Positions 5,867 through 57,504 of a stretch of 64,000 bases of DNA are shown one piece after another. The notes under the pieces are model-generated. The model ran no database searches and was not told the DNA's origin. It saw nothing but the letters and a program-made list of their open reading frames with translations. The first letter of the stretch is position 1; every line of letters starts with the position of its first letter. Source of the DNA: a virus (Duplodnaviria; Caudoviricetes); the IMG/VR virus record IMGVR_UViG_3300014205_000170, positions 256,001 through 320,000 of that record; one strand, given 5' to 3'. The position numbers were made by a program, and so were the translations under genes.

Positions 5867-6433
5867 ATGCCAATATTCGTTACAATACCTAAAATACTTC
5901 AATATTTACAAACACGTCTTGTTTTAATAGAAAAAATAATTAAATCAAAGCCAAAAACAGTAGCAATTCCACGACTAATAGAAGAACCAAGACCAAATAG
6001 ATTTAGACCAGTTCCTATTGAACAAGAACCAAAAAGAAATAATAGATTTATTGTAATATTACCGCCTGAGTTTGGAATAGAATCATATTTTATTCAAAAA
6101 ATCAATAGACCCAAAATATCTTTTACACAAAATAAATATGAATGGGCAAATATAGAATTGGAATTATTCGATGTAATTGGTCCATCTACAACAAAAGCAA
6201 TATATAAAATAATTGATTTTTGTCAAGAACATAAAAATTTAAATGTAAAAGAAAATTTTTTATTTAGTTTATCAATTCAATCTTTAGACCCTGTAGGATG
6301 TGTTGTAGAGGAGTGGGTTATCGATATAAAAGAGATATTAAATATAGATTTTGGAGATTGTGATTACAGCAATGATGATGTTCAAAAAATAAAAATTTTG
6401 ATTAAACCCTATAATTGCGAATTAGTTAATTAA
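5867..6433 (+). CDS. Tail-tube (gp19-like) paralogue with N-terminal extension carrying the TRLVLIEK tag
   Basis: EPKRNNRF...RPKI...W..IELELFDVIGPS...LDPVGCVVEEW...DFGDCDYS matches T4-like tube proteins. Confidence 0.75.
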   Translation: MPIFVTIPKILQYLQTRLVLIEKIIKSKPKTVAIPRLIEEPRPNRFRPVPIEQEPKRNNRFIVILPPEFGIESYFIQKINRPKISFTQNKYEWANIELELFDVIGPSTTKAIYKIIDFCQEHKNLNVKENFLFSLSIQSLDPVGCVVEEWVIDIKEILNIDFGDCDYSNDDVQKIKILIKPYNCELVN

Positions 6434-7454
6434 TCCTTACAACATTTGAAATTAAATCTTGTAATTTAGTACCAGTTAGATATGGTTCTAATTGCAGGGT
6501 TAAATTATTTGGAACCGCTGGACTTTGAGGAGTGTGTACATGTGTAATTAAAAATCTTAATATCAATCTTAAAAGTATAATTAATTCATCACCAAATACT
6601 GTGGGATGTAATGAATCAGCTAAACTGCCAAAATCTTTCAATCTTGTACTAAGCTCAACATCTGTTCCTAAGTTAGGTTTTTTAAATTTTCCTTCTGGAG
6701 AATATATATTAATATTAGTAGATTGAAAATTTATTTGAGAATAAGGAACAAATGTACTTTCAGATAATGCTAATCTGTCAAAAATTCTAATTGAATTTGG
6801 ATTCACATTTTCAGTTTCTACTTGTTTAATTTCTATTTGACAAGGAGTGTTTGTATTTAAATCGGTAGTACCTTTTTTAAACCTTCCAGCTCTAATCAAA
6901 ACAGACCTAGGAGAAAATGTAATATCAGCATCTTGTCTTCCTTGTAAAGCAATATCACTTGGTTGAGGGTAATAAAAAGCAGCTTTATTTAAATTATTTG
7001 TTGTTGGGTTTGAAGCAGTATTTTTTTGAGAAAAATTATTGATGTTAAAAATCTCAGATGCATCTGTATAGGATTGATAAGGTAATTTTGTTTGTTGACT
7101 TATTACAGGACCTAACCAATATCTAGTTGACGTTAAATCCAAAGGATTTTCACTGATAACAAGAACCATTTCACCAACTTGAGGACGTATGTGAGAAAAT
7201 TCAGACAGTAATGGTATACAAATTGGAAGTTTATCCGTAGGGGTATCTCTATCTTTTCCGGGTTTAATAGCTCCATTTTCATCTAGAGTTACTATTTCAG
7301 CTTTTAAACGATTAAAGCCGGCATAATCATCAGTACTTCGAACAACAGCAGCATAGATAATCCTCAAAGATGACGAAGGGTCACCTCTGTAATTATCTTG
7401 ACCTCCCATAGATAGGAGAGATTCAGACATGCTGGTAAAATCGTTCTTGCCCAT
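6426..7454 (-). CDS. Baseplate hub/central spike protein (gp5/gpV-like)
   Basis: N-terminal OB-fold pattern (VVRSTDD...R.KAEI...PQVGEMVLVI...RYWLGP) and C-terminal THVH (HxH spike-tip metal motif). Confidence 0.75.
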   Translation of the reverse strand: MGKNDFTSMSESLLSMGGQDNYRGDPSSSLRIIYAAVVRSTDDYAGFNRLKAEIVTLDENGAIKPGKDRDTPTDKLPICIPLLSEFSHIRPQVGEMVLVISENPLDLTSTRYWLGPVISQQTKLPYQSYTDASEIFNINNFSQKNTASNPTTNNLNKAAFYYPQPSDIALQGRQDADITFSPRSVLIRAGRFKKGTTDLNTNTPCQIEIKQVETENVNPNSIRIFDRLALSESTFVPYSQINFQSTNINIYSPEGKFKKPNLGTDVELSTRLKDFGSLADSLHPTVFGDELIILLRLILRFLITHVHTPQSPAVPNNLTLQLEPYLTGTKLQDLISNVVRIN

Positions 7455-7630
7455 TATTTTGAGTTTTGTTTCACTTCCTCTATTAAAGTATAATAAGTCT
7501 TTTCCAATGAATCAATTACATTTAATAAAGTTTCAACTTCTTCTTTCTTTTTATTTATATCATCAACAATATCTTGGATATCTCTAAGAAGTTGAGTGTT
7601 AGTTTTTTTATTTACGTTAACGTTATCCAT
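7454..7630 (-). CDS. Small coiled-coil protein (58 aa)
   Basis: Manual translation MDNVNVNKKTNTQLLRDIQDIVDDINKKKEEVETLLNVIDSLEKTYYTLIEEVKQNSK*; fills the gap and overlaps the next gene by TAATG. Confidence 0.7.
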   Translation of the reverse strand: MDNVNVNKKTNTQLLRDIQDIVDDINKKKEEVETLLNVIDSLEKTYYTLIEEVKQNSK

Positions 7631-7636
7631 GCTCTT

Positions 7637-8053: not shown

Positions 8054-8055
8054 AA

Positions 8056-9297: not shown

Positions 9298-9309
9298 TTG
9301 ATAATGATT

Positions 9310-9678: not shown

Positions 9679-9729
9679 ATTAACTCTAATAAGTGTTTAT
9701 ATAAATAGGAGTTACAAAAAAAACAGAAT

Positions 9730-10620: not shown

Positions 10621-10638
10621 TATAGATGAAATTGAATA

Positions 10639-10668
10639 AGAAAGAAACTTATAATTAAGTTTCTTTCT
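10639..10668 (-). terminator. Perfect 13-bp hairpin, probable terminator
   Basis: AGAAAGAAACTTA-taat-TAAGTTTCTTTCT just downstream of the stop at 10675. Confidence 0.55.
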
Positions 10669-12855: not shown

Positions 12856-13506
12856 TTATTTTTCAATTAATACTTTTCTTACAATAGGTTTTGGTTTATA
12901 ATATTCAAACACTTCTGCTAATTGCTTTGTATCTTTTGCATACATTTCCCAATCATCTGGTGCCACTTCTTCTTCTATCACATCAATATAAAATGTTTTT
13001 GGCTCAAAAGGAAAACCTCTTATTAATTGACTACCATGAATTTTCAAATCTGAATTACCTGATAAAAAATCTTTTTTGCTTGCCCAAAAACTTCCATTCC
13101 AACAAGAACCATTCGGTGTTCTTTTAACAATAGCATCTATATATTTTACATTTCCATCTTTATCTTTAAATAAAGCCGAACATCTTTTATTTTGCCACAT
13201 TGGTTCGTTTTCATTTCTATCAGTAATATCATGCCACTCCTCTTCTATTCCTGTAATAGGAGAAATAGGTTCTTGTAAACATAATTTTTCTATGGTATTA
13301 CATAACACTGCTGCTGTCAATGGAGCAGAAGAACCACTTTGACCTGACTGTCCAAACTTTTCAACTAATGCTAAAATTTCTGGAATGAATTCCTCTACGA
13401 TTGCCGTAGTATTTTGTTCTCTATAATAGTTAACAAGAACATCTAATTCTAATTTTGCATGTTTAAAAGTATTAGTCATTCTTGTCTTGTGTTTTTTGTT
13501 TAGCAA
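12856..13506 (-). CDS. Conserved phage hypothetical protein with C-terminal RKVLIEK tag
   Basis: LVEKFGQSGQSGSSA...PITGIEEEW...QNKRCSALFK pattern of a widespread phage family; ends VRKVLIEK*. Confidence 0.65.
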   Translation of the reverse strand: MLNKKHKTRMTNTFKHAKLELDVLVNYYREQNTTAIVEEFIPEILALVEKFGQSGQSGSSAPLTAAVLCNTIEKLCLQEPISPITGIEEEWHDITDRNENEPMWQNKRCSALFKDKDGNVKYIDAIVKRTPNGSCWNGSFWASKKDFLSGNSDLKIHGSQLIRGFPFEPKTFYIDVIEEEVAPDDWEMYAKDTKQLAEVFEYYKPKPIVRKVLIEK

Positions 13507-14302: not shown

Positions 14303-14773
14303 TTATGCTTTTGCAGCAGCTTCTGTCACCGGTACATCCTCAGCAAACGAGGATTCGTGAGCCCAGATTAAATTAAAGCCATATAGCTCATAATCATCCT
14401 GAACAATTTGATTTTTAACAGCACCTTTTCCTTTAGGAACAAGAGCACACTTATCAAGGAATCCTTCTTCGTTGTTGATTTTATCAACATATGGAGAATC
14501 GCCTTCAACCTTAAATTGAGATACTCCGAAAAGTTTTTTACCTTCCATTTCCAAACGTACAACACGACCAATGTTGAATTCGTCTTTTAAGTATTCATAA
14601 TCATATTCATCATCTTCGATTGCACACTCAATATCGAGTCCTTCACCGTTTTCTTTTAGCTTATCAGAGTTAAGCCAAGTCTTTACAAGTGCATCTGTAA
14701 AGATTCTGTGATTCTTGTTTTTTTTGTCTACTTCTAGGATGAAGAAGCGTTTTTCTTTGATTTTTTGCGCCAT
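14303..14773 (-). CDS. Degenerate prohead-protease (gp21-like) paralogue
   Basis: KNKNHRIF ~ KNxNGRIY; LEMEGKKLFG ~ LWxEGNxxYG; PKGKGAV ~ SSRGxGSV; VQDDYELYGFNLI ~ VQDDFELICFDLV. The GELxHP His and SSRG Ser are absent. Confidence 0.6.
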   Translation of the reverse strand: MAQKIKEKRFFILEVDKKNKNHRIFTDALVKTWLNSDKLKENGEGLDIECAIEDDEYDYEYLKDEFNIGRVVRLEMEGKKLFGVSQFKVEGDSPYVDKINNEEGFLDKCALVPKGKGAVKNQIVQDDYELYGFNLIWAHESSFAEDVPVTEAAAKA

Positions 14774-16215: not shown

Positions 16216-18039
16216 TTAATATAAAGTTATTTTTTTGTAATCGAATCCATAACAATTTGGTTCGTGACCCAAGATAAATCCTGGCAAATTATTATTACCT
16301 AATTCTTCCATAATATACTTATCTGTTGAAGCTACAGAAGGGGCAGTTAATGTTAAGTAATTTGTCCCTTCATCAGCTTTTAAAGAATGCCAGTGGCCTT
16401 TTAGAAGTAAGTGATAACAAGAAGTACCTTCACCCCATAAATTCACTAATTCACTAGGTTTTTTCTTATTAAGAGAACTATCACCGTGTTGTGCGAATAC
16501 ACATATTTTACCTCTAATTAATTTTAATAAATTATTTTTTGGCATTACAACTTCTATACGCTTTTCTTCGGCAGTTAATTTTTTAATCATACCAGTAACG
16601 ATTTTACCTGCTGTTCTGCTTTTGTCATCATCTCTGTGAATTCCTAATCTATCATGATTACCATGAATACTACAAAAAGTTATTTTACAATCTGTATTTT
16701 TAAGAACTTCTTTTAACATTTCTAACATAGAATCAATTGCAAAGAAAATTTGTTCTTCTTGAAGTAAATCCATTTCAGTTGAATGTCCAGGATGCATTCC
16801 ATCTTCTAACGCACACTCAATCAAGTCGCCTAAACAAATGAAAATAATTTCTTTAGTTTTCAAAACCTTAGATTCTTCGATAGTATGTTTTGCTATCTGC
16901 ATAATTCTTTCATGCGCAATATCTTTATTATAACCACGACCAAACATTGCATTAGCAAATTTCTTACCATAATGAATATCTCCAAAAATCGCAAACAAAG
17001 GTTTATCTGTTTTTGAATTATCTGGTTTAGAACTTTTTGTCAATTTACTTTGCAATCTAGAAACCGGAAAAGTAAAATTCGGTTTCCTTTTTGTAAAATA
17101 ACTGTTTATTATTTGTTCAACCCATTCAGAATTAGACTTAATATCAACAATCTCTTTTTGTGTATCAAAAAATTTCTTTTCGTAATACTTATATCGCTCA
17201 CTATCAAGTTTCTTTAAGATACTATTTTCTTTATTTCTACGAACCATTGCGATTGATTCGTCCTCAGTAGCTTCTTCTAAAATATGAGGGGCAATTGGTA
17301 AAGAAGATTTTGTAATATTAAAAGCTCTTAAAATTCTTTTGAAATCTCTAAAGTTTAAGAAATTAAATTCTCTAGATACAGCTCTCAATGTAAGACCGGC
17401 TCCATCCATACTAGAATAAAGACGATAAATCTTATCCATTTCTTCTCTACAGAATTCTCCGGTTAATGGTTTTTCACCTTTAATATAAATTTTGTACTTA
17501 TATCCAGTTATTCTGTGTAGCTTGTTACCGTGTTTGTCCACGAACGAGTCTTTACCTCTTAGGCTTTCTCCAACACTTCGCTCTTCGTAATTATCATCTG
17601 TTTCAGCATCATATTCCAACATTTCCTTTTCTTGTTTAGTTAAAGAAATATCAGTGTCTATTTCTTCATCTTCTAAGAAGATGGTATCTCCAGAATTTTT
17701 TGATGATTTCTTTGACTTTTTAGTCCCTTTCATAAAGGTTTGTCTTGTAGGACGACTAGAAGTAGCACTAAAAGCTTTAGATACGCTACTTTTGGATTTA
17801 CGACTATTAGTAATCTGAGACTTTGTATATTGAGAATACAAATTAATCAATGCATCTCTTTTTCCTTGCTTAATAACCCCCTCCTGAAATGCATTCTCAA
17901 TTTTACTAAGAATGCCAGTCATAAATTCTGGCTTTTTATTAAGTTTAGTACAAGATTCTGAGAGTGTAATCCCATTTTTGGTTGCTGCAATTAATACTTG
18001 TTCAGCATCATTGAGTGTTTTCACGGTAAAGTTTTCCAT
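16216..18039 (-). CDS. Calcineurin-like metallophosphoesterase with long N-terminal region
   Basis: GDIHYG, LGDLIE, GNHDR, HGD and GHWH motifs in the expected order. Confidence 0.85.
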   Translation of the reverse strand: MENFTVKTLNDAEQVLIAATKNGITLSESCTKLNKKPEFMTGILSKIENAFQEGVIKQGKRDALINLYSQYTKSQITNSRKSKSSVSKAFSATSSRPTRQTFMKGTKKSKKSSKNSGDTIFLEDEEIDTDISLTKQEKEMLEYDAETDDNYEERSVGESLRGKDSFVDKHGNKLHRITGYKYKIYIKGEKPLTGEFCREEMDKIYRLYSSMDGAGLTLRAVSREFNFLNFRDFKRILRAFNITKSSLPIAPHILEEATEDESIAMVRRNKENSILKKLDSERYKYYEKKFFDTQKEIVDIKSNSEWVEQIINSYFTKRKPNFTFPVSRLQSKLTKSSKPDNSKTDKPLFAIFGDIHYGKKFANAMFGRGYNKDIAHERIMQIAKHTIEESKVLKTKEIIFICLGDLIECALEDGMHPGHSTEMDLLQEEQIFFAIDSMLEMLKEVLKNTDCKITFCSIHGNHDRLGIHRDDDKSRTAGKIVTGMIKKLTAEEKRIEVVMPKNNLLKLIRGKICVFAQHGDSSLNKKKPSELVNLWGEGTSCYHLLLKGHWHSLKADEGTNYLTLTAPSVASTDKYIMEELGNNNLPGFILGHEPNCYGFDYKKITLY

Positions 18040-18111
18040 TAAGTTTTATGGTTTTTGTTTGTTTGCTAAGAACAATATTAATAAACAATTATATAAGAAG
18101 CAAGAAAATAC

Positions 18112-18432
18112 TTAAAAAAGTTCATAGATAGATAAAATATCTTCTTGAGTAAGTTCTTCATAACGTTTCACTTCATAATCAAAAGACGTTGCACGAGTAC
18201 CTATAACAGGCTTAGATAATAATTGAGATAATCTTTCTCTTCTCTGGGTAAGTATGGATTCTGTGTCTAGATTCGAATTTTGATATTGGTCATTATAGTA
18301 CGAATTTATTTTTTCCATTTCTTTCTCAAGGGAATATTTTTCCAAAAAAACTTTTCTAGTCTGTACTGGATGGTTGTTCTTGTAATATTCAAGGGCCTCC
18401 TCATAATTATTAAATTTTGCCGTTCTCCCCAT
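18112..18432 (-). CDS. Hypothetical protein with TRKVFLEK tag
   Basis: 106 aa; coupled to the upstream gene by TAATG. Confidence 0.65.
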   Translation of the reverse strand: MGRTAKFNNYEEALEYYKNNHPVQTRKVFLEKYSLEKEMEKINSYYNDQYQNSNLDTESILTQRRERLSQLLSKPVIGTRATSFDYEVKRYEELTQEDILSIYELF

Positions 18433-18746
18433 TATAATGTAGAATAATATTGTATTACTTGATTAATATCATCGCCATCATAAAACACATCATGTTTTTT
18501 TAATTCAAGCTCCCGTTGTAATTTGACAAAATCTCGTTTATAATGATTGTCATAATTACTATGTAAATCGAAACGAACACATTTTAATTCAGAATCTTCT
18601 TTTTTTAAAATCAATTTAAATGCTTTCTCTGGTGGGCTATAATTAGAACGAAATCTATTGGTCTTATTATTCATAATAGATTTTTTTTCTATCATTACAC
18701 TTTTTGTGTAAACAAAACAATCTATTATTTCAATAACTTCAGCCAT
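18432..18746 (-). CDS. Hypothetical protein with TKSVMIEK tag; paralogue of 18746..19072
   Basis: Shares VMIEK, DFxxLQxExxL and DIxxxxxYYS with its neighbour. Confidence 0.65.
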   Translation of the reverse strand: MAEVIEIIDCFVYTKSVMIEKKSIMNNKTNRFRSNYSPPEKAFKLILKKEDSELKCVRFDLHSNYDNHYKRDFVKLQRELELKKHDVFYDGDDINQVIQYYSTL

Positions 18747-19072
18747 TAAAATTTAATATTTTTAAATTGAGAATAATAATCTAAAGCAGTATCTATATCT
18801 GTTTTTGGCAAATCAACATTGTGTGCCAATAAATCTTTTTCTTTTTGTAATTCAGCAAAATCTAATGTAAAATCATATTGTCTTAAATTGTGCGAAAAAT
18901 CAAATGGTTCACCATCCTTAATTTTAATTTGAGAAGGAAATGTAGCACCTTTTCGAGTACGTTTTTCAATCATAACAAATGACTTTAAAATCACACTCTC
19001 CAAAAAATCATCAACTAAATCATCAAAATTATAGTTAGTTTCAAAATTAAATATACGTTTAATGTCTGACAT
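18746..19072 (-). CDS. Hypothetical protein with KSFVMIEK tag; paralogue of 18432..18746
   Basis: Same shared blocks as its neighbour; TAATG coupling on both sides. Confidence 0.65.
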   Translation of the reverse strand: MSDIKRIFNFETNYNFDDLVDDFLESVILKSFVMIEKRTRKGATFPSQIKIKDGEPFDFSHNLRQYDFTLDFAELQKEKDLLAHNVDLPKTDIDTALDYYSQFKNIKF

Positions 19073-19878
19073 TATATATTTCTAGTATGCAAAACATTTT
19101 CTAATAAACGATGATGAACTCTAATAACATCTTCTATCTGTTTCTTTTGGTTTTTTTGTATACGCAAAGTGGTATTAATAAATCTTGAATATGAAGTATT
19201 AGTAGGATTATCTATTTTCTCTAAAAGCACTGTTCTTGTTTTAGAGGTACCAAGAAGCCTATCTACCGCTTTAATAAAACAGTCTTGTTCATAATTTTCA
19301 GGCAATCGTTTATTTTCGCTCACATAACTCTGCACAAATCTTTGTGTGATTTTCTCAGAAATTTCATCGCTATTACAATAATTCAAACGTTGAGCATCAA
19401 TACCATCTATGTCTTTATGTTTTATTCCTTCAATTTCATCGACAGAATCTTGATAAACATAATAATCAAATTGCTTTTTTAGTTCTTTAAATTCATCATC
19501 AGAACAAGGTCGATTAAATTCGATATTTTCTAATGATGTTATATCTGCTGTTATTTCTTCTGGATTAGATTTTATTTGTTTAACATACTTAGAAAGAACT
19601 TCATACATTTTTTTTCTACTTTTTTTAAGTAAAAATTTCTTTTCTATCCGTCTTAAGGCAATGATGTTTTTTTCAAACATTATAAATTGTGAACTTGTTT
19701 CTTTTATTTTTTTTTCCATAAAAGAAGCCATATAACTTGCATATAAAGCAGACTCTGTTGTGTCTAAGACTGTTTTTTCAATAAAAACTTTTCGTTTATA
19801 AATAATAGACTTATTAACGACGGATGAAAATTCCACAGGAACTTCTCTAAATTCAAAATTTCGCAACACCTCTCCCAT
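19072..19878 (-). CDS. Hypothetical protein with two or three tag copies
   Basis: KRKVFIEK, (Q)FIMFEK, TRTVLLEK. Confidence 0.65.
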   Translation of the reverse strand: MGEVLRNFEFREVPVEFSSVVNKSIIYKRKVFIEKTVLDTTESALYASYMASFMEKKIKETSSQFIMFEKNIIALRRIEKKFLLKKSRKKMYEVLSKYVKQIKSNPEEITADITSLENIEFNRPCSDDEFKELKKQFDYYVYQDSVDEIEGIKHKDIDGIDAQRLNYCNSDEISEKITQRFVQSYVSENKRLPENYEQDCFIKAVDRLLGTSKTRTVLLEKIDNPTNTSYSRFINTTLRIQKNQKKQIEDVIRVHHRLLENVLHTRNI

Positions 19879-19885
19879 TAAATGA

Positions 19886-21052: not shown

Positions 21053-21122
21053 TTGAATTAATTGTTTTCAACTAATTTAAAATGGAAATAAAATAAAGTA
21101 AAGAGAGGAAAAGTTAAAGAAA

Positions 21123-21683
21123 TTATTTTTCAAATAAAACATTCCTTGTTAAAGGTTCTCTTTTTGTCATTCTAATTAAAAGAGAAAAGTCTTCTAAAAC
21201 TTTAAAATAATACACAACAACTTCTCCGCTAGTTGAATATTCTGTAAATTCAGCCAAATTACGAAACGTATGTTCTCCTGTTGTATATGTTGAACCATTA
21301 GAATATAAACCAGAAGGCAACGAACACACTCCAATATTATGCTGTGTACTAATATATTGAATTAACTCTTCATATAAATCCATTATATCAGCTAATTTAT
21401 CTAAACCATAAGTCATGCCAACTTGACCAATATCATGCATTTTCGTATTAAGTAAATTAGAACATAACTGTAATTTTTTTGTGAAATAATCTCTACGATA
21501 ATAAACAAATAACTGAAATTCGTCATTTTGACGAAAAACATGATTTGTTTGACCATCTATAAAACTTAAAATATGCTCATTATTGATTTTGTGGTTTTTA
21601 GCATACCATTCTATAAAAGTTTCTCCATATTTTGGATATTGTTCTTTTACAAAAGATTCATATGAAGGATGAGGTTTACGCAT
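21123..21683 (-). CDS. Hypothetical protein with C-terminal TRNVLFEK tag
   Basis: 186 aa ORF between colD and fcl; ends LTRNVLFEK*. Confidence 0.65.
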   Translation of the reverse strand: MRKPHPSYESFVKEQYPKYGETFIEWYAKNHKINNEHILSFIDGQTNHVFRQNDEFQLFVYYRRDYFTKKLQLCSNLLNTKMHDIGQVGMTYGLDKLADIMDLYEELIQYISTQHNIGVCSLPSGLYSNGSTYTTGEHTFRNLAEFTEYSTSGEVVVYYFKVLEDFSLLIRMTKREPLTRNVLFEK

Positions 21684-21685
21684 TG

Positions 21686-22609: not shown

Positions 22610-22892
22610 ATTTTTTTTCTATCAATATTGTTCTTGTTATAGGAAATGGTATTCTAAATCTAATGTTTCTATCATTAAGAACAATACCATCATCATCGAT
22701 ACTCTCTAATTTTAAAGAAGTTTCATAATAATAATTCATACTTTTAATATACCCCATCATCTTGTCCAATATAAAAGTATCCATTTTTTCAAGCAAAAAA
22801 TTATCTCTAAGCTGAATCAACGCCTCTTCAATAGAAACAGCAATTTTAGGTATGTGATAAGAAGGCAATATTATATTACAAGGTATTCCCAT
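22596..22892 (-). CDS. Hypothetical protein with TRTILIEK tag
   Basis: 98 aa ORF between GT11 and fcl. Confidence 0.6.
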   Translation of the reverse strand: MGIPCNIILPSYHIPKIAVSIEEALIQLRDNFLLEKMDTFILDKMMGYIKSMNYYYETSLKLESIDDDGIVLNDRNIRFRIPFPITRTILIEKKYEYK

Positions 22893-22893
22893 A

Positions 22894-24562: not shown

Positions 24563-24613
24563 AATTCAAATATAATTACCTTTGGGGCAAAACGCAAAGT
24601 AATTGATGTTTTT

Positions 24614-34258: not shown

Positions 34259-34276
34259 ATAATAATTTAAATTACT

Positions 34277-34801: not shown

Positions 34802-35124
34802 TATATTCGTTTCTCTGTTATTACATTTCTACTTTCCGCTTCTGCATTAAAGTAAGAAGAAATTCTATCTAATTTTTTATCAATAAATTTTATTCTATCT
34901 AAAAAATGTTTTTGTTGTTTTTCAGTTGTTAAAATAGTTGGGACATTTAAACATTCTACTTTTGTGGGCATATCTCTTACGGGTACAAAAATACTTAATA
35001 CTTGGTCTTCATCCCCATCTTTTAATTGAGCTTCTTTTTTAACACGTCTTATATAATTTCCAACGTCTTCTTGGCTCATATTTCCAACATTCATATAAAA
35101 AACAAGTATAGTTTTGTCCAACAT
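34801..35124 (-). CDS. Stand-alone portal clip-domain homologue with SRNVITEK tag
   Basis: VFYMNVGNMSQEDV...FVPVRDMPTKVECL aligns by eye with this phage's portal VYFIEVGNIDPADV...FLPVRGDKSSRIETL. Confidence 0.7.
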   Translation of the reverse strand: MLDKTILVFYMNVGNMSQEDVGNYIRRVKKEAQLKDGDEDQVLSIFVPVRDMPTKVECLNVPTILTTEKQQKHFLDRIKFIDKKLDRISSYFNAEAESRNVITEKRI

Positions 35125-35959: not shown

Positions 35960-36424
35960 TTACTTATCCAAAATCATATCAAAAGAGATAATATTATGAA
36001 ATTGCACTACATCATTTTCAATAGTTCCTGTTGCTCTCAACGAAGTCCTAATTAAGTTATTCAAATATAATTCATGAATAAATTGAGACTTATCAGTATT
36101 TAAAAATTGAATTGTGCCATACACAACTTTATCTTGAATATATATATTCTTTATTATGTGAGTACTATTTTTAAGGTCAACAACAGTTCCGCTACCACCC
36201 TGTAATTCTTGTGCACCAAAAAATTCTCCCAACAAAAAGTCTGTTGATGTGTTTTTTATACAATCTTCTAATGAAATCCAATTAACTTCTCCATAACCCC
36301 AATAAGGAGATTTAAAATCTGTTAAAAAAACATTTTTAAAAACATTATTGTATTTTTCAAATAAAACTTTTCTATTACCCAAATGCCTATCAACATTTAA
36401 AGTAGTGATTGGAAACATTCCCAT
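35960..36424 (-). CDS. Degenerate prohead-protease (gp21-like) paralogue with NRKVLFEK tag
   Basis: LGEFFGA (vs LGELxHP), VDLKNSTHII, VYGTIQFLNT, SLRATG (vs SSRGxG), ISFDMI. Confidence 0.7.
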   Translation of the reverse strand: MGMFPITTLNVDRHLGNRKVLFEKYNNVFKNVFLTDFKSPYWGYGEVNWISLEDCIKNTSTDFLLGEFFGAQELQGGSGTVVDLKNSTHIIKNIYIQDKVVYGTIQFLNTDKSQFIHELYLNNLIRTSLRATGTIENDVVQFHNIISFDMILDK

Positions 36425-36762
36425 TATAATTCCTCCCTCTCAATCCATTTCCAACCCAAAAAGAAAGCAATTGCAAATCTGTTAAATCTAGTTGGTCTTT
36501 TATTTGACATTAATAAAAGTTGTTTATTTCCACCAGTAACATCATATCCACCTTTGGTATCTTGTGTTTTATTTAAAACGACTCTATCTTGAGTAACCAT
36601 TATTCCACAATTTTGATTAACATTGTTTTGAACAGCAAAAAATACATGATTTGCAACAATGGGATTTGGATTATATTTTTCAAATAATACAATGTTTTTA
36701 CGCTTATTTTTAAGCATCTTTCTTGAAACTTCAAATTTCCTTTTTAAAATCTTGAAAATCAT
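36424..36762 (-). CDS. Hypothetical protein with KNIVLFEK tag
   Basis: 112 aa; C-terminal KRPTRFNRF..FFLGWKW. Confidence 0.6.
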   Translation of the reverse strand: MIFKILKRKFEVSRKMLKNKRKNIVLFEKYNPNPIVANHVFFAVQNNVNQNCGIMVTQDRVVLNKTQDTKGGYDVTGGNKQLLLMSNKRPTRFNRFAIAFFLGWKWIEREEL

Positions 36763-43360: not shown

Positions 43361-44017
43361 ATGCCATCTGAAAACAAACAAGTAACTACATCTGCACAAT
43401 CTTGTGGAGAACCAATCACTGTGACTGGTGCACTAACAGGAACAATAGGTAATTTAGCGTCGTACAATATTGGTAATCCAGTACAACAATCATTAACATA
43501 TACTGCGCCATCTATAAATTATTTTCAAACAGTTAGTTCACCCGCTACTCCTTTAACTTTTTCAAATCTTTCTACTGATTACAGACTTTCTAAAGAAGGA
43601 GAAATTTATATCGATTCTTCAACAAATGACTGTTTTATATACTTAACAGAGTATGGTGGATGGCTTAGATGTGATATTCAAAAGATTAAAAAATCTTTTA
43701 ATAATAAAGGAGAACAAATAAATACAGTTAAAGTGTCTTTTGATTTTAGTGTAGCTAATCTTAAAAAATATTATCAATTAAGAACAGTATTAACAGAAAA
43801 ATATTCAAAATCAAAAATAGTTATTTATGATTTTGCTAGTAGTTCTACAATTACAAGTGCTTATTCTACATATGTACAACCATCATATATATTAAGTACT
43901 CCACTAGCCGGAACTGCAATTGATTGCACTGCCGGATATATTACCACTGATATTTCAACGGTAATTGGTACAAATTATGTTAATTTCAACAATGCACAAA
44001 CGAGCTGTTTAGCTTAA
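43361..44017 (+). CDS. Ser/Thr-rich hypothetical protein with LRTVLTEK tag
   Basis: Central EGEIYIDSSTNDCFIY..GGW segment resembles fibre/structural repeats. Confidence 0.55.
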   Translation: MPSENKQVTTSAQSCGEPITVTGALTGTIGNLASYNIGNPVQQSLTYTAPSINYFQTVSSPATPLTFSNLSTDYRLSKEGEIYIDSSTNDCFIYLTEYGGWLRCDIQKIKKSFNNKGEQINTVKVSFDFSVANLKKYYQLRTVLTEKYSKSKIVIYDFASSSTITSAYSTYVQPSYILSTPLAGTAIDCTAGYITTDISTVIGTNYVNFNNAQTSCLA

Positions 44018-45406: not shown

Positions 45407-46215
45407 ATGAAACAAATCAGCCTCAATTATGGAGCCATAAGAGATACTATTTTTAAGTATTCTGGAAAACAATTAGTATCAGAAGGTGGTAAATCATCTA
45501 GTATATTAAATTCTTTCTTAAAAAGTGTAAAAGAAATACCAGCACTTAAGCTTCAACATATTGTATTTAAAAATTTAGAAGAAGGTCATTTCACAAAAGA
45601 AAGATTAGCAGAAAGATACATTGCTGAAAATCTAAAAATAATGGAAAGCGTTTCTTGGGATAAGCTTATTGAAGCTAATCGTAATATAAGAATAGGTTTA
45701 TTAGAAAATTGTCACGTAGAAGGAAAAAAGGGTGAATTATACGAAAGTATTCACACTCTTATGGAATCCATATGTAGAAAGGGTTTTACTAATGTAGACC
45801 AATCCAACAAAGCCTATGATGACGTTTTAAATTATCTTTTAAGAGAAATGTTTCAGAAACTACAGCAATTGAGCCGGAAACAGAAGAATTTCCAAAATTA
45901 TTATCCTGGAACTTTGTTACTAATTTAGCCGTAAATAATTTTAACCAAAGATATGCTCATTTGAATGAAAATGAAAAACAACTTTTAAAAGTTCTTCTTT
46001 CAACTAATGAAAATAAAACAAATCACTTAGAAGACCTTAAAAAAGAAAATATTGATTTAATCAACTCTATTTTAAAAACAAATATTGATGAAGAAAGTCA
46101 AAAAGTTCTAATCGGTTTTAAAGAAAATATTGAGTCTAATCTAGCTGAAAACATTGATGATAACATCATTCATTTAGCAGAATTAAGGGACACTTTAATG
46201 GATTTTCAAAACTAA
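45407..46215 (+). CDS. Helical head/scaffold-region protein split by a -1 frameshift near 45826-45848
   Basis: ORFs 45407..45928 and 45961..46215 join through the -1 frame (NVSETTAIEPETEEFPKLLSWNFVTNLAVNNFNQRYAHLNENEKQLL). Confidence 0.65.
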
Positions 46216-46658
46216 ATTTTCATCTCAATCACATGAGTGGTTGATGTACCACTTACAGTTTGATATATAGGCGTTTGCCAAAAAGAGATTCTTTGTGTTG
46301 TGGAGGTTCCAATACCAATCCCATAAGTCCATAAATCATTAAAATCTTTTACACGAACTTTAAAGGTTTTTTCAACACATACTATTCTAGTTAAAGGCAT
46401 CATATACAATTCCCATTCACAATATTCATTAAAATATGCATTAGAATATAGAGAGCTCTTCTTAATTATATATTTTATTTCATCATTTTCATAAATAACT
46501 GATTCAATAACTCCTTCTCCTGTATTAAAACCTTTAAACCCAACCACATCACCTACTTTAAAAAAAGGTTTTGGCATTCGTTTAGGCATGAAACTTTTAA
46601 AATGATTTTTTTTATCTTTTAAAATTAATTGTTTTTTATTAAACTTAGATTTGTTCAT
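46212..46658 (-). CDS. SH3/KOW-like small protein with TRIVCVEK tag
   Basis: FKVGDVV..GVIESV..KYII pattern. Confidence 0.55.
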   Translation of the reverse strand: MNKSKFNKKQLILKDKKNHFKSFMPKRMPKPFFKVGDVVGFKGFNTGEGVIESVIYENDEIKYIIKKSSLYSNAYFNEYCEWELYMMPLTRIVCVEKTFKVRVKDFNDLWTYGIGIGTSTTQRISFWQTPIYQTVSGTSTTHVIEMKI

Positions 46659-46921
46659 TTTTTTTCAAACAAAATCATTCTTTTTAAAGGTTGTGCGATA
46701 AAATATTCTGCTGCACCAAACGTTTCTGGTTCTGGTTGTTGAAAATAAAATACATTATATGAATTAATTCTTTGAAACATATAATAATCTTCAACTTTAT
46801 TATACTCTTTCGTCACTCTATATAGATGTTTTTGATTGTCTCGACTTAAAACAATATCTCCAAATTCAAATCTACCCATTTTCAATAAATGTTGAATATT
46901 GCATAGCCATAGCCTTCGCAA
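46655..46921 (-). CDS. SH3-like small protein with C-terminal KRMILFEK tag
   Basis: FEFGDIV..LYRV; probable start MGRFEFG. Confidence 0.55.
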   Translation of the reverse strand: MRRLWLCNIQHLLKMGRFEFGDIVLSRDNQKHLYRVTKEYNKVEDYYMFQRINSYNVFYFQQPEPETFGAAEYFIAQPLKRMILFEKK

Positions 46922-48326: not shown

Positions 48327-48797
48327 TTATTTTTTTAAAAAATACATATAAGTAGAAGTGGGGAACAAAGATTTTTCGAACAAAACTGTACGACTATTCA
48401 TTGTGGAAACGATAGATTTTATTGTATTAATAATAGAATCAATTTTAAAACCAGAAAGATATCCTGATACAGGAGTGCCTCCAATAACATAAGCACCACA
48501 GTGCTTAATAACACTATAATCAACATCATCTAAATAAGTTTCATAATCAGAAGAAGTCACATCTTCATTCACAACAATAGTTCCTTTATTGTTATAATAA
48601 ATTAATATTTCAAATTCATCATAGTCTGTTAATAATTCTAACGTTTTTCGTGGGTTTGAGTAATGACCTGAACTAGCTTGAATAGAAATAACAAATCCTT
48701 CTCCTAAATCTACATGAGAATTCATTCCATAACCATGTTCAATTTTACGCTCTTTTATTAGAGGAATGAAATCAAATTTATTTATTTCTGGTATCAA
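48327..48797 (-). CDS. Hypothetical protein with SRTVLFEK tag
   Basis: GFVISIQAS.GHYSNPR pattern of a common phage family. Confidence 0.6.
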   Translation of the reverse strand: MIPEINKFDFIPLIKERKIEHGYGMNSHVDLGEGFVISIQASSGHYSNPRKTLELLTDYDEFEILIYYNNKGTIVVNEDVTSSDYETYLDDVDYSVIKHCGAYVIGGTPVSGYLSGFKIDSIINTIKSIVSTMNSRTVLFEKSLFPTSTYMYFLKK

Positions 48798-52533: not shown

Positions 52534-52767
52534 TCAAAATGAAACAACACCATATAGATTATGGTTCACTTGAATTTTAGCATATCTAGAAGTTACTTTT
52601 TTAGATGGAGTAAAATCATCCACAATAATTGACGTATTATACATAGGTATATAAGGAGCAAAAATATAACCTGCCTCATATTCAAATCGTTTACGTTTTT
52701 TTTCAAACAATACTTTTCGAGTATATGAATCTTTATTTTCTTTTATAATATTATGATGGAAATTCAT
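52534..52767 (-). CDS. Major capsid protein (gp23-like) C-terminal fragment with TRKVLFEK tag
   Basis: EAGYIFAPYIPM...FTPSKKVTSRYAK..VN..LYG matches the conserved T4-like MCP C-terminal GxxxAPYxP...FxPxxGxxTRY block. Confidence 0.75.
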   Translation of the reverse strand: MNFHHNIIKENKDSYTRKVLFEKKRKRFEYEAGYIFAPYIPMYNTSIIVDDFTPSKKVTSRYAKIQVNHNLYGVVSF

Positions 52768-52922
52768 TTACTTTTTCCTTTTTTAAATTCAAAACTTACA
52801 CTAGTATTTCCTTCAAAAGCAACTATCGTATTTTTTGGAGACAAAACAACTAAATTAAGGTCATTTGAGATTTTTTCAAATAAAACCATTTTTTTATATA
52901 ATGTTGTTATAGTTCCTTCCAC
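52764..52922 (-). CDS. 52-aa protein with KKMVLFEK tag (missed by the ORF track)
   Basis: GTG start: MEGTITTLYKKMVLFEKISNDLNLVVLSPKNTIVAFEGNTSVSFEFKKGKSK*; ATGA overlap with 52767. Confidence 0.65.
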   Translation of the reverse strand: MEGTITTLYKKMVLFEKISNDLNLVVLSPKNTIVAFEGNTSVSFEFKKGKSK

Positions 52923-52924
52923 TA

Positions 52925-53113
52925 TTATTTTGTTTTAAAAATATTTATTGCGTCTAATGTTAAAAGTAATAATTTTCTTGTCATTCCCCAATAGATTTTC
53001 ATTCTTTTCAAAAAACTAATTGAAATTTCTTCTGTCTTCTCAATAATAACAAAACGCGTATTGTCATGCATTATTAAATCAAAATCTTCTGGCTTTTCAA
53101 CAAAATCTCTCAT
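52925..53113 (-). CDS. 62-aa protein with TRFVIIEK tag
   Basis: Coupled to the Hc1-like gene by TAATG. Confidence 0.6.
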   Translation of the reverse strand: MRDFVEKPEDFDLIMHDNTRFVIIEKTEEISISFLKRMKIYWGMTRKLLLLTLDAINIFKTK

Positions 53114-53328: not shown

Positions 53329-53339
53329 TTTTTATTTTT

Positions 53340-55235
53340 TTAATCTAAAATTTCACCTTCTTTTTTATTGATTCCATCTTCAAGGCTCTTGAGATGATTT
53401 TCAATATTTTCCATTAGCATTTTTGTTCTATGATTTACAGCTGCATTATTTTTTTGTAACTTCGTAGGTTGGTTTTTTTTAGGTGCTCCTTCTGAAAGTG
53501 GTTCTTCCGGAATCGTTTCTTCTCCTCCTTCACCACCTTCTGCACCAGCTTCTGCTCCTAAGTTTTCTCCTCCGGCTTCACCGCCTAAGCCTCCCATATC
53601 AGCTCCGCCACCCATATCAACTCCACCACCTAAGCCACCGCCAAGACTACTGCTTATTCCTGCACCAGCACTTGCTCCCATATCAGCTCCACCACCCATG
53701 TCACCATTAGCTGCATCAGGTTGTGCTCCTGGTACAAAATCTGGTCTTCTGAATTTTTTATCAAGGTCTACAAATATTCCAGTTTCAATATATTCAGCAG
53801 CAGCGCCCTCAATTTCAGAAAACATCTTACGTTCAATTTTCTTCTGTCTAATAATTTGTTTTATTTCAGCCTCAGAAAAACCCATAATATATTGCATTGC
53901 CCAAGTATAAGACACTGGAGAAGTAGGTTCAGGAGTAAACATAGCTTGAAACACTTCTAAACGTGCTTTCATTGTTTCCAACTTAAGCAACTCTTGTTGA
54001 GTTGAAGGATTTGCTAATGTTAATTGAAAATTATCTATTTCATCTTCTAGACCTAAAAAATATAAATGAATATTTGCAACTCTTCTTAATTCTATAATAA
54101 TGAATTGTTGAAGTCTGTTTATAGTTCTTGAAAATCTTAAATCCGCTTGAGAAAGTGCTGAACCTCCCGGAATAGTTTCTGCATAATTTAAATAAGGTTT
54201 TGGAACTTTTAAAGCCGCAAATAATTTATTTTGTAGATATTCAATATCCGCAATATCATTTAAATTAGATGCACCTGGTAATGTTTCAATTCTAGAACTT
54301 TTATCTCCTCTTACTGGTAAAAAATAATCTTCTTCATAAGTAATAGGACTATATTTTAAATTTATATTTCCAGTTGTCGGGTCTACTAAAGGAGCTTTTT
54401 TAACTTGCGCTTTAGTTTTCTCCATAAATTGAGGCACATCTGCAGGGTCTATATTTCCAACTTCAATAAAATATACTCTACGCTCTGGTGCTCTTACTAA
54501 TCTATAAACCAACATAGCATCTTCCGCTAATTGTAATTGTTTCCACAATTTTCGAGCTGGTTCTAAAACAGAACGACCATATGGTAATCGACTACTATCA
54601 GAAAGTAATCTAAAGTGTGCAATTTGCCATTCCTCAAAGAACATATTGCCAACATCCCATCTAAATCTACATTTACCCAATTCATTCGTTGGAGATTCTT
54701 CTCTATGAATTTCTCCAACTGGTAATTGAATAATATCATAAACACCTCTTTCTTGGTCTATTTCCAATTTTAAAAATAAATCACCAAATTTTAACAATTC
54801 TCTAGACCAAAAACCAAGATTATAATTTACATTAAGAACATTATAAAATAAATCTTTTAAAGTCTTTTTTACTCTCGAATTTTCACTGTATATAGTTAAA
54901 ATTTCACCTTGTTCAGAACGCGTTACACATTCATCAGCTAAAATATCCAATGCCGCAGAAACTTCCGGAGATTGGTCCATTGCTCTATAATCTTGATAAG
55001 ATGTAAATCTATCTGCTTCATAATATAAAGAACGTGAATATAAATCTTGTGCAATTTTTGAAGATTGTATATCTAAAAATTCTTGTTGTTTTTGTTGTTT
55101 GGATGCAAAAGGATTACTTAAAGCCGGTGTGCTTACAAGTATGTTTTTATTGGTTTCTTCCGCGCTTTGAGGTCGCTGTCTTCTCAGAGCTCTAAACACC
55201 CCTGCGAATATACTATCATCATATTTTTCAGCCAT
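53340..55235 (-). CDS. Portal protein, T4 gp20-like
   Basis: YRAMDQSPEVSAALDILADE, HFRL, PYGRSVLE, LAEDAMLVYRLVRAPERRVYFIEVGN, EDYFLPVRG, LFAALKVP; Gly/acidic tail. Confidence 0.95.
   Translation of the reverse strand: MAEKYDDSIFAGVFRALRRQRPQSAEETNKNILVSTPALSNPFASKQQKQQEFLDIQSSKIAQDLYSRSLYYEADRFTSYQDYRAMDQSPEVSAALDILADECVTRSEQGEILTIYSENSRVKKTLKDLFYNVLNVNYNLGFWSRELLKFGDLFLKLEIDQERGVYDIIQLPVGEIHREESPTNELGKCRFRWDVGNMFFEEWQIAHFRLLSDSSRLPYGRSVLEPARKLWKQLQLAEDAMLVYRLVRAPERRVYFIEVGNIDPADVPQFMEKTKAQVKKAPLVDPTTGNINLKYSPITYEEDYFLPVRGDKSSRIETLPGASNLNDIADIEYLQNKLFAALKVPKPYLNYAETIPGGSALSQADLRFSRTINRLQQFIIIELRRVANIHLYFLGLEDEIDNFQLTLANPSTQQELLKLETMKARLEVFQAMFTPEPTSPVSYTWAMQYIMGFSEAEIKQIIRQKKIERKMFSEIEGAAAEYIETGIFVDLDKKFRRPDFVPGAQPDAANGDMGGGADMGASAGAGISSSLGGGLGGGVDMGGGADMGGLGGEAGGENLGAEAGAEGGEGGEETIPEEPLSEGAPKKNQPTKLQKNNAAVNHRTKMLMENIENHLKSLEDGINKKEGEILD
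53560..53705 (-). repeat. Gly-rich DMGGG coding repeats in the portal tail
   Basis: DMGGGADMGASAGAG...GGGVDMGGGADMGGLGGE. Confidence 0.6.
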
Positions 55236-55294
55236 TTTGTATCAAGTTTTATATTACAAATAAATTAGTTTTTTAGTCAAAGTAAACCATTAGG

Positions 55295-56980
55295 TTAGGT
55301 GGAAATAGGTCCATATAGCCACCCTAAATCACTATCTGGAGTTTGTATATTTTTCTTTATTTCCTTTTGTATATTAGCAGAAGGCGCATTAGGATTACCA
55401 TTTGTTTGATAGCTGATGGATTCAATCATAGCTTTAAAAAATTCTTTACTTTTAAATACATTATCAAATTCAGTATCTCTCATAAATAATGCTATCGCAA
55501 ATGCAAAAATAAGGTCATCATTATATCCATCAGCATGCTCAGGTTTATCGCCTTTATGGATGAATGTTCGAAATTCAGTCAATAGTCTTTTTGAATAAAT
55601 TTTTACTTGTGTTTCTCTCATATATTTTGCTACACAACTCATTAGTAAAGGTCTAGTTTTTGAAGTTGTTTGAAAACCTGGAATTTCACTATCTTGGTCT
55701 ATAAAATCAAGTCCACCATATCTTACATAGATTTTTTTAATTGATTTAGAATGATGAATTTTATCAGAAGGATATCCTAAAGTATTTTTAAGCGCAAGTG
55801 TCGTTACTAAACCATGGTTATTTCCTTCAATCGCAACAAAGGCCATATTATAATCAATTGCTACCTTCATCACTAATTGTGCAAAAACATCTGGAGGGAT
55901 TTTACCTTGATATTCTGCTACTTGAGTTAAAGTATCTGCATTAATTACTTGTAAAGTTGAAAAGTCAGCACTATCTCCACGGGCAACATCCCCTCCTATA
56001 ATATAATTTGCTTTAGGTTCTGGTTTTTCCCAAACATAAAATGTAGTTTCTCTTTTAATAAATCGCTCTGCTGGTTCTTTGTAATCGTAATACCAAACAG
56101 GTTTAATTGTAGAAATATTATTTTCATATTTGTCAATAATCCAATTTTCAATTACAACAGCAGAAGAGCCTTCAAATGATAAATCTAATTCTTGTGCGAT
56201 TTTAATTTTATCATATTTCATCAATGCGCATTGTTCTTCATACCAAGGACTCCACCAAAATCTTCTTCCATGTTCATCTACTCTTTCTTCTAATCCTCTT
56301 GCATAATAAGGATGTTTACTCCAATGCACTTCTGTTCCAACAAAAGCTTTTTTATCTGTCTTTTGTTTTTTAATTGTTTCTGTCCAAGTTGTATGATATA
56401 AACCACCAGTTCCATTTGGAGTAGAAATCATAATACACTTAGCACTTTCAGCAGATAAAGCCAAACCTGCAGCCATCCAAATTTCTTCTGCGTTTTCAAT
56501 AAACGCAGTCTCATCTAAAATTAACATTGTTAATGTTTCTCCACGTCCAGCATTTCCACCGGAAGCTACCGCCTTACACCAACTACCATTAGATATGATA
56601 ATTTGTTGTGTATTATTTGTAGGAATGCTATCAGGTAAAAGAAAAGGAGGTAAGTAATCTAAAAATTGTTTTACCGATGCTAAAAATCGTCTTGCTCCAG
56701 CACCATCATTTGCTACAATAAGAATTCTTTCATTCTCATTAAAAAGCATTTTCCAACATACATATCCAGATGTAATTACACTAAGTCCTGTCTGGCGAGC
56801 TTTAAGTATAATGTTATTTTTATGATTTGTGTAATTACTTAAAACTTCTTTTTGATATTCGAAAAGAGTTAATCTATCAATAGTATTTTTGGTAATATCA
56901 AAAATATAACCATACGTATTCATAAAATACACAGGGTCTCTAGCACATCTTATAAATTCTATTGTTTCTTGTTGTGTCAT
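55295..56980 (-). CDS. terL: Terminase large subunit, T4 gp17-like
   Basis: KARQTGLS Walker A, LILDE Walker B, ISTPNG, nuclease GGDVARG..D, DDLIFA. Confidence 0.95.
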   Translation of the reverse strand: MTQQETIEFIRCARDPVYFMNTYGYIFDITKNTIDRLTLFEYQKEVLSNYTNHKNNIILKARQTGLSVITSGYVCWKMLFNENERILIVANDGAGARRFLASVKQFLDYLPPFLLPDSIPTNNTQQIIISNGSWCKAVASGGNAGRGETLTMLILDETAFIENAEEIWMAAGLALSAESAKCIMISTPNGTGGLYHTTWTETIKKQKTDKKAFVGTEVHWSKHPYYARGLEERVDEHGRRFWWSPWYEEQCALMKYDKIKIAQELDLSFEGSSAVVIENWIIDKYENNISTIKPVWYYDYKEPAERFIKRETTFYVWEKPEPKANYIIGGDVARGDSADFSTLQVINADTLTQVAEYQGKIPPDVFAQLVMKVAIDYNMAFVAIEGNNHGLVTTLALKNTLGYPSDKIHHSKSIKKIYVRYGGLDFIDQDSEIPGFQTTSKTRPLLMSCVAKYMRETQVKIYSKRLLTEFRTFIHKGDKPEHADGYNDDLIFAFAIALFMRDTEFDNVFKSKEFFKAMIESISYQTNGNPNAPSANIQKEIKKNIQTPDSDLGWLYGPIST

Positions 56981-57060
56981 TGTATTTAACTAACAATAAA
57001 TAGCTTAATTTTTACCTATTTTGGCAAAAAATCAACTATTTTCCTTAATAAAATGATATT

Positions 57061-57504
57061 TTATCTTTCGAAAGAAAAAGCGAAAAAATTAATTATAATT
57101 GATGGTTTACCATCAATAGATGTAATTGAATTTAATTGACATCCACGTAATGATAAAAAATGTTTATAATATTTAGAATTTAAATAAAAAAAAAACATAT
57201 CAACTCCTTTGGTGTTTTTGCCTTGTTCAAACTTACGAAGCCATTTAATGAAATTAGCAGATTGAGTTTTATCATAAGAATCAACTATATTAATAGTAAT
57301 GGGTTCTAGAATTTCAATCCACTTTTCTTCTTCATTCATTTCTAATGTCATTTTTGTACTTACTGTTGGGTCAAATTCAACTAATAACATAGTTTCTAAA
57401 TGTGAATTGTAATCACAAAATTTCATTCCAAATAAATTTTGATTTGATTTTTTTTCAAATAGAACTTTTCTTTTATTAAAATTTTGTAATAACGTCTTTA
57501 TCAT
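57061..57504 (-). CDS. Highly degenerate tail-tube-like paralogue with KRKVLFEK tag
   Basis: EPITINIVDS....ANFIKWLR....LRGCQLNSI resembles tube W.PITIT.xD....xxEW....LxGCF. Confidence 0.5.
   Translation of the reverse strand: MIKTLLQNFNKRKVLFEKKSNQNLFGMKFCDYNSHLETMLLVEFDPTVSTKMTLEMNEEEKWIEILEPITINIVDSYDKTQSANFIKWLRKFEQGKNTKGVDMFFFYLNSKYYKHFLSLRGCQLNSITSIDGKPSIIINFFAFSFER

Follow-up and report, generated by a model that had tools for sequence, protein, structure and literature searches.

The 64,000-nucleotide stretch of DNA analysed here (the window) spans positions 256,001-320,000 of a 518,809-bp IMG/VR virus record (IMGVR_UViG_3300014205_000170), a sequence with direct terminal repeats and a G+C content of 30% which, judged by its genes, belongs to a T4-like phage. 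Our analysis identifies in the proteins of this genome a recurrent peptide, T-R-x-V-L-h-E-K (h, hydrophobic residue), which is a portable, surface-exposed short linear motif (henceforth the tag) grafted onto its carriers as terminal extensions or loop insertions. By sequence comparison these carriers are about 180 otherwise unrelated accessory proteins, in which strong purifying selection on the peptide keeps the tag. Very probably it serves for docking or recognition, with a single partner that reads it on all carriers. The single most likely mechanism, which we put forward tentatively, is that the tag acts as this lineage's T4-type capsid-targeting and prohead-protease signal, a handle for a ClpC/ClpP machine or for another hub being nearly as likely as loading into the head. 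A preliminary description of the window had already proposed a short linear motif that docks diverse payloads onto one common partner; the motif, the unrelated payloads and the selection stand, a single common partner is very probable, and the three mechanisms offered there (an adaptor recruiting a protease or other effector, a capsid-loading or prohead-protease signal, a modification site) are all candidates. What it described was moreover a local sample: the system comprises ~180 proteins across the genome and is confined to a single narrow clade.

Results

Strict copies of the tag were defined by the pattern [RK]-x-[VI]-[LIVMFC]-x-E-K and, genome-wide, were counted in a set of ~840 open reading frames (ORFs). 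In the window we counted 18 strict copies, where 500 residue shuffles gave 0.63 +/- 0.81 and never more than 4. The whole genome has 184 strict copies in 180 of the 840 ORFs, compared with 7.2 +/- 2.4 expected from shuffles, a 25-fold excess, and the reversed motif occurs 8 times; carriers make up about 22% of the ORFs, or about one fifth of the phage proteins. A blind scan for gapped 4-residue motifs returned the tag as the sole enriched motif, and no second enriched motif was found when the scan was repeated with the tag masked. The extended consensus reads (P)-x-T-R-x-V-L-[IFTLV]-E-K. When the Glu position was freed, E was counted 184 times and D 6 times, the latter being the background level, and freeing the Lys position gave K 184 times and R 4 times; two residues before the Glu (P3), L or I stands in 151 of the 184 copies (82%).

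As had been suspected from the synonymous variation among the window copies, codon choice at each position of the tag mirrors the codon usage of the genome, with R written as AGA, CGA, CGT or AGG, and third codon positions within the tag carry little information. The 30-nt flanks of the tags share 32% identity, as against 30% between random coding windows. Since codon usage is that of the genome and the flanks are no more alike than random sequence, selection acts on the peptide and not on the DNA; spread of the tag by DNA copy-and-paste is likewise ruled out by the dissimilarity of its flanks.

The location of the tag near the protein ends, noticed at first in the window, is general: 145 of the 184 copies lie within 30 residues of the N- or C-terminus, and 24 end 0-4 residues ahead of the stop codon. 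Most often a protein has one copy, which may lie wherever the chain is accessible. Small proteins predominate among the carriers: of the 207 proteins of 80-120 amino acids (aa) 62 are tagged, of the 55 with at least 500 aa a single one. The reported absence of the tag from terminase, portal and similar core proteins agrees with this sole match among the large proteins, and the T4-type portal (window 53340-55235) and the T4-type large terminase (window 55295-56980) hold 0 copies each.

BLAST sorts the 180 carriers into 144 groups; 119 are singletons without a BLAST relative in the genome, and a Pfam family common to the 54 larger carriers was not found. The carrier best understood is ORF 12856-13506 of the window, which matches Pfam PF25185 (Tad3) with 95.3 bits (cut-off 27) and whose model retrieves with Foldseek chain B of PDB entry 9b7d, the ThsB-Tad3 complex (E 4e-16, template-modelling scores 0.76/0.86). 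Sequence and model thus identify it as a Tad3 homologue, with ThsB binding as its predicted activity. Among 120 Tad3 homologues, 92 stop near ...YYDKK, about 12 residues earlier and without the tag, and the other 28 extend with P-x-P-I-T-R-x-V-L-x-E-K plus 0-11 unalignable residues; in 24 orthologous tails the R, E and K are invariant and the residues past the K are not alignable. In the AlphaFold model of the homologue the fold has a confidence (predicted local distance difference test, pLDDT) of 92.7, and the extension drops from 82 to 49 with no secondary structure. One Tad3 homologue from a metagenome (P0015) ends in two tandem tags, REVLFEK-IV-RELLLEK. A second informative case is an Acb3 homologue (genome 341232-342056), where the tag sits in a loop insertion of ~25 residues, YGGPI-x-R-x-V-I-x-E-K-x-G..., shared by 21 of 120 family members (the homologue here and 20 close relatives) and replaced by a gap in the other 99; this insertion is the least confident part of the model (pLDDT 58-76 vs 90.5 overall). 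Most homologues of both carriers, the 92 and the 99 counted above, therefore lack the tag, which was the check proposed at the outset, and the earlier impression that the tag lies outside the folded domain is supported by the disordered tail of the one protein and the low-confidence loop of the other.

Further carriers are built on shortened copies of virion proteins that the phage itself encodes, among them capsid, tail tube, terminase and, by a weak match, protease. Window ORF 5867-6433 has a complete tail-tube domain behind a tagged leader of 45 residues which the true tube protein does not have; in window ORF 52534-52767 the tag is followed by residues 31-75, a copy of residues 460-506 of the major capsid protein; and in window ORF 46212-46658 it stands directly ahead of a 41-residue piece copied from an 1133-aa protein. 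Elsewhere in the genome a fragment of the terminase ATPase ends in a tagged C-terminal tail, and in two fragments of the capsid protein the tag lies next to the copied segment or within it. None of the parents (capsid, tube and terminase proteins) has the tag.

It could be objected that this is not a tag at all and that the pattern is a strand of one hidden superfamily, an in-frame DNA or RNA element, or chance; some carriers are indeed local paralogues (families of 12 and 10; window ORFs 18432-19072). Such an origin would have to produce a 25-fold excess over shuffles in proteins of which 119 have no BLAST relative in the genome, and it is contradicted by the untagged proteins that represent the Tad3, Acb3, capsid, tube and terminase families outside the clade, as well as by the unconserved third codon positions and flanks and by the use of both AGR and CGN codons for the Arg. 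As far as sequence analysis reaches the objection is refuted, and we give it hardly any credence.

The tag is confined to a narrow clade, relatives with a capsid identity of at least 89% being tagged and eight at 82% or less untagged. In those eight (67-82% capsid identity, three complete genomes) the frequency of the tag is at background, as it is in about 140 other loci fetched, and a degenerate DNA pattern of the tag has 0-2 matches in each tag-free relative versus 82 in this genome; an alternative tag was looked for in the tag-free relative G001 and none was found. Contigs of the tag clade have 5 and 10 tags where 0.4 and 0.6 are expected. One source sample, that of SRR21686410, holds two tag-clade contigs. 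Besides this genome, IMG/VR holds tag-clade sequence as short fragments of 41 kb or less; a nucleotide search with one window segment gave 0 matches to cultured phages, and the closest capsid protein of a cultured phage is 35% identical. Two contigs at 89-90% capsid identity (G006, G007) and two Logan contigs (L114, L115) contain orthologues whose tag has stayed in place where overall identity is 23-47%, and taken together the conservation among orthologues that had been asked for extends over 23-70% identity; in ORF 19072-19878 both tags are kept in L114 and L115. Synteny with G001 shows the tagged genes of the window as insertions between conserved core genes.

Some observations on gene content accompany this distribution. 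ORF 34801-35124 (-) ends ...SRNVITEKRI, and its orthologue in the tag-free relative (G001:153684-153990) ends ...NELLIEKK, which may be either a proto-tag or a coincidence. The run of ~20 genes at window 16216-34801 (-) is mostly absent from G001 and has tagged small genes interspersed among several glycosyltransferase-like genes and one for a 607-aa metallophosphoesterase-like protein; genes for sugar epimerase and aminotransferase lie in the matching region of L114 and L115. A block of 26 kb (genome 329589-355793), which separates the tail module from the head module, is common to G006 and G007 and absent from G001; its products are an RNA ligase with an HD plus P-loop kinase protein, together resembling an RNA-repair pair, a substrate-binding/OmpA fusion, a permease and an ATPase of ABC type, and the Acb3 homologue. 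This was the sole block made visible by phyletic profiling for a clade-specific protein that recognises the tag, and it offers no obvious peptide-binding candidate.

All 20 window copies of the preliminary description were recovered with the peptides given there, 2 on the + strand and 18 on the - strand, in frame in 19 ORFs in total, one of which holds two; SFVMIEK and NIVLFEK deviate at position 1, as claimed. On the + strand, RLVLIEK (5915..5935) stands at residue 17 of ORF 5867-6433 (188 aa), the tail-tube paralogue, and RTVLTEK (43781..43801) at residue 141 of ORF 43361-44017 (218 aa). The - strand copies begin with RKVLIEK and stop (12859..12879), the last 7 residues of the Tad3 homologue. 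A cluster follows with RKVFLEK (18337..18357) at residue 26 of ORF 18112-18432 (106 aa), KSVMIEK (18684..18704) at residue 15 of ORF 18432-18746 (104 aa), SFVMIEK (18962..18982) at residue 31 of ORF 18746-19072 (108 aa), apparently a paralogue of the ORF beside it, and the two tags of ORF 19072-19878 (268 aa), namely RTVLLEK (19216..19236) at residue 215 and RKVFIEK (19774..19794) at residue 29. RNVLFEK and stop (21126..21146) form the C-terminus of ORF 21123-21683 (186 aa); RTILIEK (22614..22634) is at residue 87 of ORF 22596-22892 (98 aa), and RNVITEK (34810..34830) at residue 99 of ORF 34801-35124 (107 aa). RKVLFEK (36353..36373) lies at residue 18 of ORF 35960-36424 (154 aa), whose residues 81-150 match weakly a head-maturation-protease PHROG, and NIVLFEK (36676..36696) at residue 23 of ORF 36424-36762 (112 aa). 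Next come RIVCVEK (46368..46388) at residue 91 of ORF 46212-46658 (148 aa) and RMILFEK (46661..46681), one residue ahead of the stop of ORF 46655-46921 (88 aa), which is missing from the gene-caller output. RTVLFEK (48372..48392) is at residue 136 of ORF 48327-48797 (156 aa), RKVLFEK (52699..52719) at residue 17 of ORF 52534-52767 (77 aa), KMVLFEK (52872..52892) at residue 11 of ORF 52764-52922 (52 aa) and RFVIIEK (53036..53056) at residue 20 of ORF 52925-53113 (62 aa); the last, again RKVLFEK (57451..57471), is at residue 12 of ORF 57061-57504 (147 aa), beside the large-terminase gene. One further match, KPVIIEK (window 38005-38025, -), had not been listed; it falls at residue 73 of a family-2 glycosyltransferase (ORF 37393-38241) with a G001 orthologue 55% identical, and is probably a chance match of the pattern inside a fold.

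Tags are unevenly distributed along the genome. Among the 92 genes of the first 42 kb, an immediate-early block, there is 1 tag. Nearly every gene of the block that borders the terminal repeat (genome 536-46105 and 515235-518488) is preceded by TCGTATAGTAC, 5-36 nt (most often 12) ahead of the gene start, with 48 copies near starts and 70 in total; by its placement this element looks like an immediate-early promoter or initiation signal. The same immediate-early block encodes two homologues of M28-family metallopeptidases (genome 1856-2719 and 34432-35484), which were considered as clade-specific candidates and discarded, one having a homologue in the tag-free relative G003. The densest tag arrays are co-directional genes at genome 42-140 kb and 499-515 kb, with more than half of all copies. 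A second element, T-run-N7-CTATTTAT, stands ahead of structural genes such as those for scaffold, sheath and terminase; of its 26 sites genome-wide 0 are in 0-140 kb, and on these two grounds it is a candidate late promoter. In the window, CTATTTAT with a T-run ~8 nt upstream is found at 3528(+), 9701(-), 38271(+), 39634(+), 45383(+) and 56996(-).

Discussion

If the tag is a head-loading signal, an exposed strand V-L-x-E/K (the slash marking the cut) would be recognised by the prohead core or by a gp21-type protease, for which a hydrophobic P4, L or I at P3 and Glu at P1 would be the determinants. Tagged proteins would thereby be built into the prohead, may be released by cleavage after the Glu and could enter the next cell together with the DNA, the putative cargo being a cocktail of counter-defence binders (Tad3-like, Acb3-like) together with decoy fragments of virion proteins. 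The genome encodes the partners of such a system at 355.8-359.7 kb, where genes for the gp23 capsid protein and the scaffold adjoin that of a gp21-type protease (genome 359153-359566; PF03420, E 2.9e-32), and the tag fits the gp21 rule in its Glu at P1 and in the preference for L or I at P3. In T4, an Asp at P1 blocks processing, Alt and gp21 also carry C-terminal propeptides, and the capsid-targeting sequence (CTS) is regarded as a means for T4-like phages to load varied proteins (PMC9026906); the heads of giant phages hold tens of megadaltons of ejection proteins, according to PMC7411985. The cleavage site of the capsid protein, M-L-N-E/V, is invariant in 58 relatives, and in the capsid fragment at genome 432124-432528, whose operon has a late-type promoter motif, the tag exactly replaces this site.

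Several observations weigh against head loading. The densest tag arrays are devoid of any T-run-N7-CTATTTAT copy, and cleavage would remove almost nothing where the tag ends 0-4 residues from the stop, as 24 tags do. The tag of the Acb3 homologue is inside the fold, and the extreme N-terminal position typical of a CTS is not seen, leaders being of 1-30 variable residues and as many copies being C-terminal or internal. Tags are absent from relatives whose protease is 65-69% identical and whose capsid cleavage site is the same; in this phage, capsid, scaffold and protease proper are without a full tag; and a share of about 22% of the proteome far exceeds any known packaged set. A basic charge bias like that of the T4 internal proteins was looked for, and tagged proteins were no more basic than untagged ones. 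At P1', where the tag has Lys, T4 sites usually have Ala, Gly or Ser; Lys at this position is not stated for T4 in the passages of PMC9026906. The capsid-loading option of the preliminary description is therefore weakened by the lack of late-type motifs in the dense arrays and by the tags near the C-terminus or inside a fold. Co-folding of the scaffold, the gp21 homologue and the 30-residue Tad3 tail, supplied as alignments, gave a score of 0.00 that we count neither way. A gp21-like protein of 156 aa (window 14303-14773, -) was also considered as a recogniser of the tag and found no specific support: its weak similarity to the gp21 protease is limited to 40 residues near the Ser motif, with VPKG replacing SSRG, Pfam and PHROG searches gave no match, and it has an orthologue of 44% identity in the tag-free G001. 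It may be a structural protein of tube or protease fold.

Alternatively, the tag could tether its carrier to the ClpC-like unfoldase and ClpP of the phage, or to a host AAA+ protease, a possibility to which we assign a low weight, well short of even. The carrier would then be either an adaptor whose bound host protein (ThsB, a CD-NTase, or sensors of capsid, portal, terminase and tube) is destroyed, or itself the substrate, the tag being a degron that clears early decoys ahead of assembly. The flexible terminal tails and loops that bear the tags resemble those of degrons and adaptor tethers, most tagged genes are in early-type arrays, and each of the two carriers that have known relatives belongs to a family of proteins that bind immune enzymes stoichiometrically, Tad3 binding ThsB (PMC13728456) and Acb3 binding CD-NTases (bioRxiv 10.1101/2025.07.23.666291). 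Other carriers are pieces of the kinds of proteins named as triggers of Thoeris and of the cyclic-oligonucleotide-based antiphage signalling system (CBASS), i.e. capsid and other structural proteins and the prohead protease (PMC13728456; bioRxiv 10.1101/2025.07.23.666291). The phage also encodes the machine: at genome 170427-175938 lie genes for ClpP, for a complete DnaJ of class A and for a two-ring AAA+ protein of ClpC type (D1, UVR middle motif, D2; no N-domain), with a tagged 228-aa gene, absent from G001, inserted between ClpP and ClpC. For the adaptor motif proposed earlier, the ClpC-like/ClpP pair is now a candidate effector, and a rationale comes from the cargoes whose relatives are known, all of them protein binders. 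However, ClpC-like protein, ClpP and DnaJ are all present in the tag-free G001, and ClpP in 4 of 5 tag-free relatives, so that the Clp machine does not explain the clade specificity of the tag. The absence of an N-domain from the phage ClpC-like protein speaks in the same direction, as do family searches of the genome for Clp_N and ClpS, neither of which was found. We also know of no Clp adaptor motif resembling the tag.

The tag might also dock on a hub that neither degrades nor packages, to which we also assign a low weight. Such a hub could be a phage or host scaffold concentrating the carriers in a replication or assembly factory or at the membrane, or a chaperone, in which case the phage DnaJ with the host Hsp70 would keep about 200 fast-evolving small proteins folded. 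The composition of the tag, V/I and L, then I/F/T/L/V, flanked by R and E-K, favours a beta-strand; the typical dose of one copy at any accessible position is consistent with docking; and the near-absence of tags from the immediate-early block is expected if the partner is a phage protein made later. On the other hand, the strict requirement for E and K exceeds what is usual for chaperone clients, no tag-clade-specific candidate emerges, the block at 329-356 kb consisting of RNA-repair, transporter and Acb3-like genes, and family searches of the genome for Hsp70, vWA and MoxR-type AAA+ proteins, which found none, count against a hub as well.

The near-exclusive use of K over R (184:4) and of E over D (184:6) is more typical of side-chain chemistry than of simple binding, and would suit an enzyme that uses the strand as its recognition site and alters the invariant Lys (or the Glu), as an acylating or conjugating enzyme would. 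We consider such a modification site improbable. A Glu-specific protease accounts for the E equally well, no candidate modifying enzyme linked to the tag was found, and we know of no lysine-modification consensus with an adjacent E-K after three hydrophobic residues.

It is tempting to speculate, with the reserve that a minority view deserves, on a bait-and-handle counter-defence system of ~200 modular binders, each catching a different host protein and all sharing one tag-recognising partner. Targets would include ThsB and a CD-NTase and, through the decoy fragments, sensors of capsid, portal, terminase, tube and protease; the common partner would destroy, sequester or relocate the protein caught.

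Whatever its nature, the partner of the tag, once found, would give a role to ~180 orphan proteins in this phage and in uncultured relatives, about one fifth of the genes being small, fast-evolving proteins with one selectable handle. Head loading, if true, would widen the CTS principle, which in T4 serves a handful of proteins, to an entire injected arsenal, and would provide a natural 8-residue packaging tag. Recruitment of an effector to bound host proteins would be a new architecture of counter-defence, in which case the carriers would supply, ready for use, a catalogue of proteins that bind bacterial immune proteins, and a bait-and-handle system would amount to a programmable hub resembling proteolysis-targeting chimeras (PROTACs), not described for any virus of bacteria. 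The Tad3 and Acb3 homologues with and without the tag are clean natural experiments, for which cloned genes suffice and culture of the phage is unneeded.

Comparison with known systems

Our searches of the literature on the motif, Tad3 and Acb3 found no description of the tag. Short peptides that connect proteins to AAA+ machines are well known, such as the C-terminal ClpX-binding peptide of SspB or ssrA-type tags. As in those tethers and degrons, a motif on a flexible tail could link many kinds of protein to a single machine, and ClpC-like and ClpP proteins are encoded here; the differences are that the tag does not resemble those peptides in sequence, that the unfoldase of the phage has no N-domain for binding adaptors, and that the machine occurs in tag-free relatives as well. 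Viruses of eukaryotes use BC-box or F-box-like adaptor motifs to hijack the degradation machine of the host. Here the logic of a binder with a common handle may be shared, the carriers with known relatives binding host immune proteins, whereas there is no ubiquitin-type system in this setting; a comparable degradation-adaptor motif in phages was not described in the literature searched.

Giant phages of the phiKZ type (201phi2-1, SPN3US) load many proteins into the head and have a gp21-like protease that cuts after Glu at a short motif (PMC9026906, PMC7411985). Their sites have very few determinants beyond the Glu and are known from virion proteins found by proteomics (PMC9026906), whereas the tag is an 8-residue motif of high information on small, mostly early proteins that do not look structural.

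The closest comparison is with the CTS of T4, carried by IPI-III and Alt and removed by gp21. In T4 a handful of proteins are marked, by a signal that makes up their first 10 residues (PMC9026906); here the tag lies 1-30 residues from either end or in a loop of ~180 proteins (22% of the ORFs), has another sequence with an invariant Lys after the Glu, and is found mostly in early-type arrays. The two systems are alike in placing a short peptide on unrelated accessory proteins that turn over fast, one carrier being an anti-restriction protein in T4, and in a peptide ending with hydrophobic-x-Glu in which Asp is no substitute for processing in T4 (PMC9026906), and both are accompanied by a gp21-type protease and a scaffold.

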